Origin: a virus
DNA: 20,544 nt
Reading direction: 5' to 3' (one strand)
Virus record (IMG/VR): IMGVR_UViG_2932987669_000001
Coordinates: 1-20,544 of that record
Shown: positions 7,549 to 17,735 of the stretch, one piece after another
How positions within the stretch are numbered: position 1 is the stretch's first letter
Layout: each line of letters starts with the position of its first letter
Translations under genes and position numbers: made by a program
Notes under the pieces: generated by a model
Database searches by the model: none
Seen by the model: only the letters and a program-made list of their open reading frames with translations
What the model was told of the DNA's origin: nothing

Positions 7549-8561
7549 AACCGAAGACGCTGATCACCTATTCCCAGCTCGCCACCTTCCTGAGCTGCCG
7601 CCAGAAAATGCGCTGGCGTTACATCGAAGAGCTGGTGCCGCTGGAACGGGCACAGGCCCTTTCGTTCGGTTCGCTGATCCACGACTGCTTGGAGTCCTGG
7701 CACAGCCAACAGGACCTGCCGGCAGTGCTGGATCACATCGATCGGATCTATTCCGATCGAGCCACCGACGAGAAACAACGCGCCGACTGGCATCTCGCGA
7801 CCGCCATGATGAAGGGCTACGTCAAACGCTACCCCACCGAGGATTTCGAAATCATGGCGCTCGAGAAAAAGTTCGAGGGCCCGATCGTGAATCCGAAGTC
7901 GGGCCGCGTGTCCCGGTCCTTCCGGTTCGCGGGTAAGGTCGACGGGATCGTGAAGCGGGGCGACGACCACTTCCTGCTGGAGACCAAGACGGCCTCGCAA
8001 GTGGACGCCGCCTACTTGGAACGGCTGTGGCGAGATTTTCAGATCTCGATCTATTCCCTATACGCCCGGCGCGTTTGGGGCCTCGAGATCAAAGGTGTCA
8101 TCTACAACGTCTTGTGCAAGGCGCGCCTCCAGCAAAGCCGGGGCGAAACCGAGGCCGAGTTCGAAGCCCGCCGCGCAGCGCTGATCGCGAAATCGAAAAC
8201 TGGTCGGTCCTCCGCGAAGCGACGGCTGCCGGAATCCGACGAAGCCTTCAAAGACCGGCTTGCTGCCAAATACGACGAGCCCGGCATGTTCGTCCGCGAG
8301 GAGGTCCTGTTCACCCAAGGTGACCTGCAGCAGGTCGCCGGGGAAATCTGGGACCTGACTCAGGCCCTGCTCGAAGCCCGCCGAGCAAACGCCTATTTGC
8401 CGAACCGAGGCGCCTGCTACCAGTACGGCCGCGCGTGCGCCTACCTGCCGTTGTGCCAGTCGCCCGACAACGAACACCTCATCCCCACCTTCTACGAACG
8501 TCAACCCCCGCATTCGGAGCTGGCCGAGGAACCGGCCGCAGCCGAAGCGCCCATCTTTTGA
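7545..8561 (+). CDS. PD-(D/E)XK exonuclease, Cas4/AddB/RecB-like, with a probable Fe-S cluster
   Basis: TYSQLATFLSC, FGSLIHDCLE, FAGKVDGIV, LLETKT, QISIY and C-terminal C-x6-C-x5-C. ATGA overlap with the upstream gene. Confidence 0.9.
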   Translation: MKPKTLITYSQLATFLSCRQKMRWRYIEELVPLERAQALSFGSLIHDCLESWHSQQDLPAVLDHIDRIYSDRATDEKQRADWHLATAMMKGYVKRYPTEDFEIMALEKKFEGPIVNPKSGRVSRSFRFAGKVDGIVKRGDDHFLLETKTASQVDAAYLERLWRDFQISIYSLYARRVWGLEIKGVIYNVLCKARLQQSRGETEAEFEARRAALIAKSKTGRSSAKRRLPESDEAFKDRLAAKYDEPGMFVREEVLFTQGDLQQVAGEIWDLTQALLEARRANAYLPNRGACYQYGRACAYLPLCQSPDNEHLIPTFYERQPPHSELAEEPAAAEAPIF

Positions 8562-8590: not shown

Positions 8591-9307
8591 GTGAAACTCC
8601 CCACCGAAAAGCAACCCAAGAACCAATCACTCATTTCCCAAACCGTCCTGTTGTACGGCCCAAACAAAATCGGCAAAACCGAGCTGTGCGCCCAGATTCC
8701 CGACACGCTGTTCCTCGCTACCGAAGCGGGCCACAACCATGTCGAGGCATTCGTCCAACCGATCAAGAACTGGGAGGATTTCCTTAAGGCGTGTGCCGAG
8801 ATTGCGAAGATGGACCATTCCTTCAAGGTCATCTGCATCGACACGGTCACAAACCTGCTGTGCTTCTGCACGGACCATGTGTGCGCGCAGCACGGCATCC
8901 AGCACGAAAGCGACATGGGCTACGGCAAAGGTTATGCGTTGGTGCGCAACGAGTTCATCCGTGCCCTGACCAAGTTGAGCATGCTCCCGGTCGGCCTTTG
9001 GATGACCGCGCACAGCACCGAGAAGGCCATCGAAACCCGAACCGGCACGCGAACGCGGATCGTGCCGAACCTCCCGGAGAAGATGGGACAGTTCATTCTC
9101 GACTTGGCCGACATCGTGGCGCTGTGCTCGGTAGATCGAAATGAGAAGGGACTAAACCAGGCCGAACGGGTGATCTACACCAAGCCAAGTCCGGACTACG
9201 TCGCCGGTGACCGTTCAGGTCGGCTGGAGGCCAAGCTGCCCATGACCTACGCGGCTCTGGCCAAAGCCTTCGAGGCCACCACCCCCGAACCCCAAACCCA
9301 AGCCTAA
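8591..9307 (+). CDS. AAA_24 / Sak4-like phage ATPase (single-strand annealing recombinase family)
   Basis: Walker A YGPNKIGKT, Walker B VICIDTVT, GYGKGY, MTAHS, AGDRSG; AAGGAG RBS. Confidence 0.85.
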   Translation: MKLPTEKQPKNQSLISQTVLLYGPNKIGKTELCAQIPDTLFLATEAGHNHVEAFVQPIKNWEDFLKACAEIAKMDHSFKVICIDTVTNLLCFCTDHVCAQHGIQHESDMGYGKGYALVRNEFIRALTKLSMLPVGLWMTAHSTEKAIETRTGTRTRIVPNLPEKMGQFILDLADIVALCSVDRNEKGLNQAERVIYTKPSPDYVAGDRSGRLEAKLPMTYAALAKAFEATTPEPQTQA

Positions 9308-9319
9308 CCATTGAAACTC

Positions 9320-9364
9320 GGCAAGGCATGACATGGCTGCGGCTCCCGCTTGGCTAGGCAAGGA
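9320..9364 (+). repeat. Degenerate GGC-NN pentamer tract (candidate guide-like ncRNA)
   Basis: GGC AA|GGC AT|GAC AT|GGC TG|c|GGC TC|c|CGC TT|GGC TA|GGC AA|GGA; intergenic, just before the RBS of the RAMP-like gene. Confidence 0.6.
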
Positions 9365-9384
9365 CACTCAGGAGAACCAGAATA

Positions 9385-9951
9385 ATGCGACACATTCACA
9401 CAACCATCACAGGCATTACGCCCTTACTTATCAACCGATGTTCCGAGGAGACCTACGGCGGCGGACACGCGAGCGGTTCACGCCGGGCTCCGGCCGACGA
9501 AGCGGAAGCCCGGCTCTACACCGATGAAGCCGGATTCCCGGTGATTCCGCAGCCGAACCTGCTGCGCTGCATCCTCGATGCCGAGAGACTCATCCAACCC
9601 GTTCGCGATCTCCGCACAGCCGCAATCAAGGAAGACAGCTTGGTTGCCAACGGCCTCGATATCGAGGGCTACGAGATGCGGATCCAAAGCGACTGCGGCT
9701 GGGCAGTCGACGAACGGACCATTCGCATCCCGTCCACCGGAAAGCGCGTGCTGCGGTACTGGCCGATTTTCCGCGACTGGGCACTATCCTTTGAGATGAC
9801 CCTGGACACCGACTTCCTCACGGTTGCTTCACTTCGGAAACTGGTGGACATCGCCGGGAGGCGAATTGGCCTGGGTGATTTCCGGCCCGACCGCCGAGGC
9901 CCGTTCGGCAAGTTCCGGGTGACCCAGTGGCAGGTCGAGAGTGCAGCCTGA
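9385..9951 (+). CDS. Stand-alone RAMP/Cas7(Csm3)-fold-like protein
   Basis: N-terminal strand ITGITPLLI; GFPVIPQPNLLRCI (RAMP P-x-IP-xx-L helix motif); thumb-like VDERTIRIPSTGKRVLR; WALSFEMTLD; C-terminal glycine-rich loop AGRRIGLGDFRPDRRGPFGKFRV. AGGAG RBS. Confidence 0.75.
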   Translation: MRHIHTTITGITPLLINRCSEETYGGGHASGSRRAPADEAEARLYTDEAGFPVIPQPNLLRCILDAERLIQPVRDLRTAAIKEDSLVANGLDIEGYEMRIQSDCGWAVDERTIRIPSTGKRVLRYWPIFRDWALSFEMTLDTDFLTVASLRKLVDIAGRRIGLGDFRPDRRGPFGKFRVTQWQVESAA

Positions 9952-10120
9952 AATCCTGACCCGATCACTCATCCACCAGCATGCTTTCAAAGAGGAGGCG
10001 GATCGATCGAAACCCGTTTTGACCCATAGCGCAGGGACCGCCCTCGGTCGCCTACCCGCCAAGCTTCCCGCGAATCTTCAAGCCATCACCAACGCATTCG
10101 TGGGAACCGACAACACCTAG
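9941..10120 (+). CDS. Possible 59-aa ORF overlapping the RAMP gene stop
   Basis: GTG 9941 to TAG 10120 is open (VQPEILTRSLIHQHAFKEEADRSK...GTDNT); weak RBS and no recognisable motif. Confidence 0.25.
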   Translation: MQPEILTRSLIHQHAFKEEADRSKPVLTHSAGTALGRLPAKLPANLQAITNAFVGTDNT

Positions 10121-10169
10121 CGCAATCGAGTTAACCAGCTCGTTTTAAACCACAAACCACAACACCATT

Positions 10170-10241
10170 GGCTTGGATTCCCAGGTGCCTGGATGACCGA
10201 CATCCCGGCGCCCTGGCACCGCTGTGCCCGAATCCAGAGCC
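10170..10241 (+). ncRNA. Predicted three-way-junction RNA upstream of the DUF669 gene
   Basis: P1 GGCTTGGATTC/GAATCCAGAGCC; P2 GGTGCC-T-GGATG [ACCGA] CATCC-C-GGCGCC; P3 GGCAC [CGCT] GTGCC. Confidence 0.45.
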
Positions 10242-10257
10242 GCTAGGAGAAACAACC

Positions 10258-10704
10258 ATGAGTGATTTCGAACAAATCGACCTGGCCGAACTTGACAACA
10301 AGTTCGAATCCGAGGAAGCCAGCGAAACAAATCACACACCTGTGCCCGACGGCAAGTATCAGGTGAATGTGGACAAAATCGAACTGACCAGATCCAAATC
10401 CGGCAATCCGATGCTCAAGTGGACGTTGCGGATCATCGGACCCACCCAGCGCAAACGGCTGCTTTGGAAGAACAGCGTGATCACCGAGGCCAGCATCAAG
10501 TGGCTGAAAAGAGACCTGATCATTGCCGGATTGGTCCTGGCTAAATTGTCGGATTTGGAACATCGGCTTCATGAGTTGCTGGACATCCAACTGGAGGTCA
10601 AAAAGGTCACCAAGAACGACTACGAAAACATCTACCTGCAGCGACTGATCGAAATCGATGACCCCGACGCGCAGGCCAGCACCCAAGACAGTGTGCCCTT
10701 CTGA
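10258..10704 (+). CDS. DUF669-family phage protein (SSB-like)
   Basis: AGGAGA RBS before ATG 10258. PVPDGKYQVNV...SKSGNPMLKWTLRI; acidic tail ending DSVPF, typical of SSBs. Confidence 0.85.
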   Translation: MSDFEQIDLAELDNKFESEEASETNHTPVPDGKYQVNVDKIELTRSKSGNPMLKWTLRIIGPTQRKRLLWKNSVITEASIKWLKRDLIIAGLVLAKLSDLEHRLHELLDIQLEVKKVTKNDYENIYLQRLIEIDDPDAQASTQDSVPF

Positions 10705-10706
10705 CC

Positions 10707-16833: not shown

Positions 16834-17664
16834 TCAATCCTTCGGTTTTTGGAAGCGGAGGATCGAATTGGCTGGCGCCGGTTTGATGATCTCGATGTGG
16901 TCCGCTCGCACCTGGCCGATTTGGTCAGCGTCCTTCACAAAACAAATCAGGCCATAGCCATCGCCGAATGGGAACTTGAAGGTTCCCCGATTCTGCCAAA
17001 GCGAACCTTCTGTCCAGCCCTTTGCCAAGGCTTTCGCCTGAATCGCAGCCACCTTTTCCCGTGCCGACTCGGCAACGGGCGTCCAAAACGACCAAGAGTC
17101 ATCGGCGGCTTTTTCGGGAAACAGGTAGGCTTGCTTGCGCCGGTCCTCCTCGGCGCGGTCTCGGTCCTCCGGTGCTGGTTCGAACCCCAGGCGAATCAAT
17201 GGCTCCATCGATGGAGGCTTGTAAAGGCGGGCACGAAGCGCGAACGCCTTGCGGGCTTTGTCGATCGAGTCTTCGTCGAATGTCACCAAGGCCCAGGCGT
17301 AGATTTCTTGAAAGCGCTGCGACACCTGATCGAAAAGCGCTTGCGGCATCTTACCCGTGTGGTGAGCCCACTGGACCTTTTCCATTTGTTGCCACAGCCA
17401 GGCGAAATAGATTGGGTCCAGCCGACGATAACAGGTGCCGTTCACACCAAGGTCCCCAGCGAGGCCAGTCGGCCGATCGGTTCGCCAGTAAGTACAATCC
17501 GTGGCCACGTACAGCGCCTCATCATCGCAGGACGGACGCTGGTGGGCTTGCCGGTCGTCGCAGGCTTGGCGGACGGCGACGGTATCTTCCTGCGCGGCCG
17601 CTTCCTTGGCTTGGTTGGCGAGGTAGGCTTGGTGGGTGCGGTCCAGCATCTCAAGGGTGATCAT
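16834..17664 (-). CDS. Hypothetical phage/ICE protein (two globular segments)
   Basis: 276-aa ORF with protein-like composition (YRRLDPIYFAWL; FPFGDGYGLICFV), AGGTG RBS, downstream of motif copy 6. Confidence 0.75.
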   Translation of the reverse strand: MITLEMLDRTHQAYLANQAKEAAAQEDTVAVRQACDDRQAHQRPSCDDEALYVATDCTYWRTDRPTGLAGDLGVNGTCYRRLDPIYFAWLWQQMEKVQWAHHTGKMPQALFDQVSQRFQEIYAWALVTFDEDSIDKARKAFALRARLYKPPSMEPLIRLGFEPAPEDRDRAEEDRRKQAYLFPEKAADDSWSFWTPVAESAREKVAAIQAKALAKGWTEGSLWQNRGTFKFPFGDGYGLICFVKDADQIGQVRADHIEIIKPAPANSILRFQKPKD

Positions 17665-17735
17665 GGTTCACCTACCTGAAACCGGCTGTTCAGCGTGTTC
17701 CCGGAGTGAGGGGCCGTCTGGGATGATGGGTCCAT
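17661..17735 (-). CDS. 24-aa leader ORF translationally coupled to the 276-aa gene
   Basis: AAGGAG RBS, ATG 17735, MDPSSQTAPHSGNTLNSRFQVGEP; TGA overlaps the next ATG (ATGA). Confidence 0.4.
   Translation of the reverse strand: MDPSSQTAPHSGNTLNSRFQVGEP

Follow-up and report, generated by a model that had tools for sequence, protein, structure and literature searches.

A prophage VIPR locus with a single out-of-register guide-like tract and a divergent Vipr protein, probably impaired for canonical activity

VIPR (Viral Interference Programmable Repeat) systems were described in a series of 2026 preprints (bioRxiv 10.64898/2026.04.26.720920,.720927 and 2026.10.15.759431). According to these works, the first of which lists 2,664 proteins, Vipr is a minimal form of RAMP and assembles into polymers on vrRNAs composed of 9–16 GGY-NN pentamers, with one protomer per unit; the G-loop, thumb and helix 1 of the protein bury the GGY triplet, and the NN bases are left to pair with double-stranded DNA, passing over every third base of the target, which leads to the transcriptional silencing of rival phages and satellites. 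The same preprints distinguish seven types with different accessory genes, mention systems with a single vrRNA, report that vrRNAs frequently show internal degeneracy, and describe conflicts between VIPR and anti-VIPR that involve orphan guides. In SUSP1, residue R138 touches G2 and the substitution R138A abolishes silencing, as does the perturbation of the GGY motifs, and footprints of six units were reported to be functional. The published rule for vrRNA detection asks for at least four tandem YNNGG units, of which there are typically 9–16 in phase.

Here we describe a locus of this kind in a stretch of viral or proviral (prophage) DNA of 20,544 nt, which is called the window in what follows. 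The first-pass annotation of this DNA had put the locus forward as a candidate new module; it belongs instead to an already published family, whose kind and general mechanism were made known in 2026, and should be seen as an additional, probably impaired member of it. The viral GGY/NN-repeat systems to which the annotation had likened it under the name VIPR are indeed in print with the same mechanism, and its idea that each subunit may bind one GGC unit and display the NN bases as a discontinuous guide coincides with what has been described for VIPR. The locus thus confirms that VIPR loci can be recognised in a first-pass annotation made from the bare sequence.

The vipr gene, its neighbours and the upstream tract

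The features of the locus are as follows.

8591–9307, + strand: Sak4-like AAA_24 ATPase, the upstream neighbour (family matches and synteny).
9320–9366, + strand: vrRNA-like GGC-NN tract (enrichment in the genome and same place as in relatives).
9370–9374, + strand: Shine-Dalgarno sequence AGGAG of vipr, 10 nt 5′ of the ATG and 3 nt 3′ of the tract.
9385–9951, + strand: vipr gene, whose 188-aa product, P0001, is a minimal RAMP that contains the G-loop GLGDFRP..GPFGKF (homology and fold).
9760–9762, + strand: codon TGG for Trp126, which aligns with the SUSP1 thumb residue Arg138; the change from CGG to TGG is one transition.
10258–10704, + strand: DUF669 SSB-like protein, the downstream neighbour (family matches), with no guide 3′ of it here.

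The vipr ORF runs from an ATG at position 9385 to a stop codon at 9949–9951, and its translation contains the RAMP motifs quoted in the first-pass annotation. Searches of P0001 with Pfam and PADLOC assigned it to no family, and it matched phrog_4652 (E 2.6e-21) and had relatives in 2346 representative clusters at E ≤ 0.001. A profile built from 42 members of its clade (A1) matched PDB entry 36pp_D, ‘SUSP1 Vipr protein’, with an E value of 1.1e-13 over residues 3–184, and P0001 alone matched the same entry with an E value of 1e-7. Likewise, blastp comparison with Vipr from Felixounavirus Alf5 yielded an E value of 1e-12, and tblastn with P0001 found the vipr gene of Felixounavirus phages, which in phage Alf5 has plain GGT-NN arrays with hairpin tails on its flanks. 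The AlphaFold (AF2) model of P0001 (pLDDT 85, pTM 0.81) had Csm3 as its best match both with Foldseek (E 4.8e-7) and with VIA (Z 12.5, rmsd 3.7 over 165 residues), so that the structure prediction agrees with the RAMP nature first proposed for this protein, its fold being of the Csm3/Cas7 type. The model comprises a single domain, without a second RRM, that includes the RRM core, the thumb and the glycine-rich loop; in this loop, D165/F166/R167 align with D177/W178/R179 of SUSP1, which make the GGY contacts. These comparisons establish the fold and the family of the 188-aa protein, which, judged from its sequence, is Vipr, a member of the published VIPR family. The genome contains no second vipr gene, and a strict in-phase GGY scan of its whole length revealed no further vrRNA array.

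Besides the Sak4-like and DUF669 genes, the window contains genes for a serine integrase, an exonuclease, ERCC4, RecD2 and a primase. The earlier statement that the window lacks CRISPR arrays and cas genes held: a search of the window for CRISPR-like arrays found none, and none of the ORFs scanned with Pfam and PADLOC, a set that included part of the small ORFs, matched a cas or defence family. A scan for sigma-70 promoters between positions 8500 and 10800 found none, the Rfam search returned nothing relevant, a search of sequencing runs listed no RNA data set and a single metagenome, with a 0.05 share of words, and a comparison with the genomes of 60 relatives (10 from the same family and the rest from the same class) produced only one weak partial match.

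The tract begins 12 nt past the Sak4 stop codon (TAA, 9305–9307). Read directly, its units start at positions 9320 (GGCAA), 9325 (GGCAT), 9330 (GACAT), 9335 (GGCTG), 9341 (GGCTC), 9347 (CGCTT), 9352 (GGCTA), 9357 (GGCAA) and 9362 (GGACA), with single C insertions at 9340 and 9346. There are thus 9–10 pentamer units, with two +1 slips, two variant triplets (GAC and CGC), an NN series of AA AT AT TG TC TT TA AA and the 3′ end GGCAAGG that is typical of the clade. The coordinates, the 5-nt GGC-NN periodicity and the NN series agree with the first-pass annotation, as do both insertions and both variant triplets.

With six GGC in a 43-nt stretch, the tract is the peak of GGC density of the 20.5-kb window on both strands, and across the 11.8-Mb genome the fraction of 43-nt stretches with at least six is no more than 8.4e-4. 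Chains of at least six GGY with spacings of 5, 6, 10 or 11 nt start at 681 of 23.6 million strand positions, which corresponds to a chance of approximately 0.002 for such a chain in the 77-nt spacer on the strand of the gene. Strict measures gave a weaker signal. An in-phase 8-unit scan of the window did not single out the tract, the best score in the window (18/24) being equal to the median best score of shuffled sequences, and Tandem Repeats Finder missed it; the longest in-phase run is of four units, one GAC included, and there are at most three consecutive exact YNNGG units, below the published detection rule. A slip-tolerant Viterbi score was also tried and dropped because of its positive drift in GC-rich DNA. 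From its sequence and place, we consider that the tract is a guide-like sequence homologous by position to the guides of the relatives, though weak by strict measures.

In the window, the stop codon of vipr and the start of the DUF669 gene are separated by a spacer of 306 nt (9952–10257), which measures 13 nt in L040 and about 65 nt in L002, two relative loci that are described below. This spacer is unique in the genome, has neither a GGY tract nor an Rfam match, and shows an RNA fold z of -3.7, with a multi-hairpin at about 10165–10245 and a 7-nt repeat, AAACCAC, at 10147–10167. Elsewhere in the window, two ORFs of 276 aa on opposite strands overlap almost fully (16849–17679, + strand, and 16834–17664, − strand); PADLOC found no match for either of them.

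Guides and gene order among the relatives

As the reading of the first-pass annotation requires for the flanks of homologous genes, pentamer tracts were found at most of the relative loci: 28 of the 34 scanned contained in-phase GGY-NN tracts that scored 20–24/24 in the 8-unit scan, on the strand of the gene. Most of them lie just 5′ of the vipr start or just 3′ of its stop, and some are arrays. Variant units with GAC, TGC, AGC or CGC are common in these tracts, and the 3′ end GGCAAGG recurs in the guides of relatives.

The nearest relative, P0002 from locus L040, is 49% identical to P0001 and is encoded in the same gene order as in the window, exo-Sak4-vipr-DUF669-ERCC4-RecD2; the order exo-Sak4-vipr-DUF669-ERCC4 is also found in L002. 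In L040, the spacer between Sak4 and vipr (66 nt) is filled by 11 in-phase units that end in GGCAA GGAGT. Additionally, both loci have a second guide between the DUF669 and ERCC4 genes (L040:5069–5123, which includes a GACAT unit, and L002:4149–4268), so that their guides flank the vipr-DUF669 pair. This second guide is absent 3′ of DUF669 in the window, where the gap between the DUF669 and ERCC4 genes is of only 2 nt (10705–10706). It had been proposed that the module interrupts a Sak4-SSB pair; its placement between the Sak4 gene and the gene for the DUF669 SSB stands, but not as a one-off event, because it is common to relatives of around 50% identity. Since L040 and L002 share it, the placement between Sak4 and SSB is a conserved arrangement of a phage lineage rather than a unique interruption.

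At other loci of the clade (L004, L006, L019, L020, L025, L030 and L033), the gene lies before Sak4, after DUF669, between the portal and capsid genes, by tail genes or by a helicase gene. The linkage of vipr with Sak4 and DUF669 takes at least three gene orders, and the neighbours of the gene vary among Sak4, DUF669, RusA, portal, tail and helicase genes. No conserved accessory (vap-like) gene was found across the clade loci, and the window has no dedicated small gene either; to judge from the sequences, the guide and vipr seem to move together as a cassette without a fixed accessory gene.

The number of tracts per locus can be high, with at least 15 tracts of 15–26 units in L011 (347–2156), contained within 1.9 kb of sequence upstream of vipr, and 9–10 tracts downstream of vipr in L021 (3640–4601). 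In L040 (3980–3990), L003, L024 and L025, the Shine-Dalgarno sequence falls within the final in-phase guide unit.

Departures from the clade and their possible meaning

Compared with its relatives, the window copy departs from the clade norm in both the tract and the protein. In-phase runs have a median of 13.5 units among the relatives (100 runs of at least six units), as opposed to a maximum of four here. Slips are absent from 85 of 89 relatives' tracts of at least eight units, and the net shift is zero in 86 of them; in the window tract there are two uncompensated +1 slips, in adjacent units. For its part, P0001 is off-consensus at 10 of the 49 columns with a conservation of 90% or more in the clade, against five for the sequence that comes second and a median of one. 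The substitutions are concentrated in the basic loop that follows helix 1 (G67E, K71Q, G73V and T79A), where the clade sequence KAGKSKVTTQK is not kept, and in the thumb (G120K and R126W); the position of Trp126 is occupied by Arg in 132 of 134 diverse members of the family. Conversely, the G-loop is intact and all 24 invariant columns of the clade are kept.

In the tree, P0001 groups with its syntenic sisters (support of 0.85 for the seven-member clade), at the end of a branch of 1.49 substitutions per site from the clade ancestor, as compared with 0.42–0.83 for the six sisters. Vipr identity is likewise lower between the window and L040 (49%) than between L040 and L002 (63%), whereas in the same comparison the four neighbouring genes show differences of only 5–7 points. 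The excess of approximately 0.8 substitutions per site, accumulated with no stop codon or frameshift, would be very unlikely under neutral decay and suggests that the protein was under selection for most of its history. We infer that the locus is not undergoing plain neutral decay, because it retains an open frame, a good Shine-Dalgarno sequence and the whole G-loop. Errors in the assembly of this single-contig genome could account for the TGG codon and for the two inserted C bases.

These data lead us to favour, with some reserve, the view that the locus is a prophage VIPR with a single guide and no accessory gene, probably impaired for canonical activity. If it operated as described for SUSP1, Vipr protomers would polymerise on the guide RNA, one per pentamer, burying each GGY and displaying the NN pairs, which would read double-stranded DNA, skipping every third base, with the result that genes of rival mobile elements would be silenced. 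The guide itself would probably be cut or protected from the transcript of the recombination operon, given that the tract lies 12 nt after the Sak4 stop codon and that no promoter was matched for it. Three features speak for the presumed loss of function: the two uncompensated 1-nt insertions split the guide into in-phase runs of no more than four units, the second guide of the syntenic relatives is gone, and a Trp stands in the place of the near-invariant thumb Arg that holds G2. The slips, the missing guide, Trp126 and the long protein branch all back the earlier guess that this copy might be decaying.

Against impairment, the Trp may stack on the guanine, which could replace the Arg contact, and, in view of the internal degeneracy and the functional six-unit footprints reported for other vrRNAs, an RNA of 4+1+4 units with bulged bases may still be usable. 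It is conceivable, if rather unlikely, that the system works fully with an atypical guide, in which the C bases are bulged out, the GAC and CGC units are tolerated, Trp126 stacks on G2 and 8–9 NN pairs still silence a rival element. The ORF, the G-loop and all the invariant columns are kept, as this would demand, and the relatives have precedents for the variant units, including GACAT in the second guide of L040, and for slipped tracts (four of 89); the six-unit footprint that is functional in SUSP1 points in the same direction. However, slips are so rare and so consistently without net shift in the relatives that two of them in adjacent units are difficult to reconcile with it, and so is the loss of an Arg found in nearly the whole family, as the alanine mutant of SUSP1 is dead and perturbing its GGY motifs abolished silencing. 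Nor was a target found: a search of the genome that carries the locus with the 1-nt skip rule and four treatments of the slips gave a best match of 14/16, at or below the controls with permuted guides. In viral contigs, the exact NN pattern had more than 118 scattered matches, many of them in giant-virus and other contigs, a number that chance alone would give for a pattern with 16 AT-rich specified bases and that is therefore uninformative.

The pattern of substitutions is compatible with a third reading, which we consider improbable, whereby Vipr has been repurposed to bind GGY-repeat RNA and oligomerise without engaging DNA, its thumb Arg and basic loop having been remodelled. Such a protein might serve as an anti-VIPR, either a sponge for the guides of superinfecting phages or a poison subunit for their Vipr, or it might regulate its own translation through its slipped leader. 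Selection that has changed rather than ceased would fit a long branch whose frame is still open, and the departures fall in the basic loop and the thumb and leave the G-loop untouched; moreover, the tract abuts the vipr Shine-Dalgarno sequence, and orphan guides in conflicts between VIPR and anti-VIPR are known from the literature. Where the Shine-Dalgarno sequence (GGAG) forms the last unit of the guide, filament assembly would mask the ribosome site. Nevertheless, of 29 loci, 12 have the Shine-Dalgarno sequence and the tract in the same phase, a proportion close to the chance expectation, so that autoregulation is unsupported by that count; furthermore, the Shine-Dalgarno sequence is outside the tract in the window, and the VIPR preprints describe no such variant of Vipr.

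Finally, it is very improbable that the tract is a spacer rich in GGC by chance and that Vipr, if active, uses guides in trans, since the silence of the strict periodic scans and of Tandem Repeats Finder and a run short of the published four-unit YNNGG threshold are outweighed by the low probability of such a chain at that place, by a position, strand and 3′ end (GGCAAGG) that match the guides of syntenic and other relatives, and by the lack of any other array in the genome that could supply guides.

The locus is a natural test case in which an essential thumb Arg is changed and the guide is out of register, and it could reveal how much degeneracy is tolerated by a non-contiguous code and by what course VIPR systems disappear or take on other roles. 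It also adds to the family a clade whose members have single guides, lack an accessory gene and are embedded in the Sak4/SSB recombination module of temperate phages that infect environmental bacteria.

Comparison with known systems

The best-described counterpart is the type II VIPR of SUSP1 and Felixounavirus (Vipr, vap1 and vrRNAs; PDB 36pp), the protein of which is homologous to P0001 and shares with it the D-aromatic-R-P G-loop. Both systems are viral, have a GGY-NN RNA gene beside vipr and on the same strand, and lack cas genes and CRISPR arrays. Unlike SUSP1, to whose protein it is approximately 27% identical, the window has no vap1-like gene and a single short guide instead of four of about 12 units; the units are GGC rather than GGT, and the thumb has Trp in place of R138. 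The guides of the window clade also differ from those of SUSP1 in that they have no hairpin or pseudoknot tail and end in GGCAAGG beside the Shine-Dalgarno sequence.

Closer still are the members of its own clade in prophages and metagenomes (phrog_4652; for example L040, L002, L004 and L018), at 41–51% identity, with which the window shares the G-loop RIGLGDFRP..GPFGKF and a guide directly upstream of the gene. These relatives, in contrast to the window, have in-phase tracts, commonly more than one guide (up to at least 15 in L011), Arg126 and the loop KAGKSKVTTQK.

Csm3/Cas7 subunits polymerise on RNA with a fixed period. Those of type III and type VII effectors (for example 6xn3_F, 7uzw_A and 8yhe) share with P0001 the RRM core, the thumb hairpin and the glycine loop, a similarity that is of fold only (Z 12.5, TM about 0.6 and 11–16% identity). 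Unlike the systems to which they belong, the window has no cas operon, no CRISPR array and no Cas10, Cas5 or Cas6 partners, and its period is of 5 nt with a constant triplet, as against 6 nt on a contiguous spacer in Csm3/Cas7.
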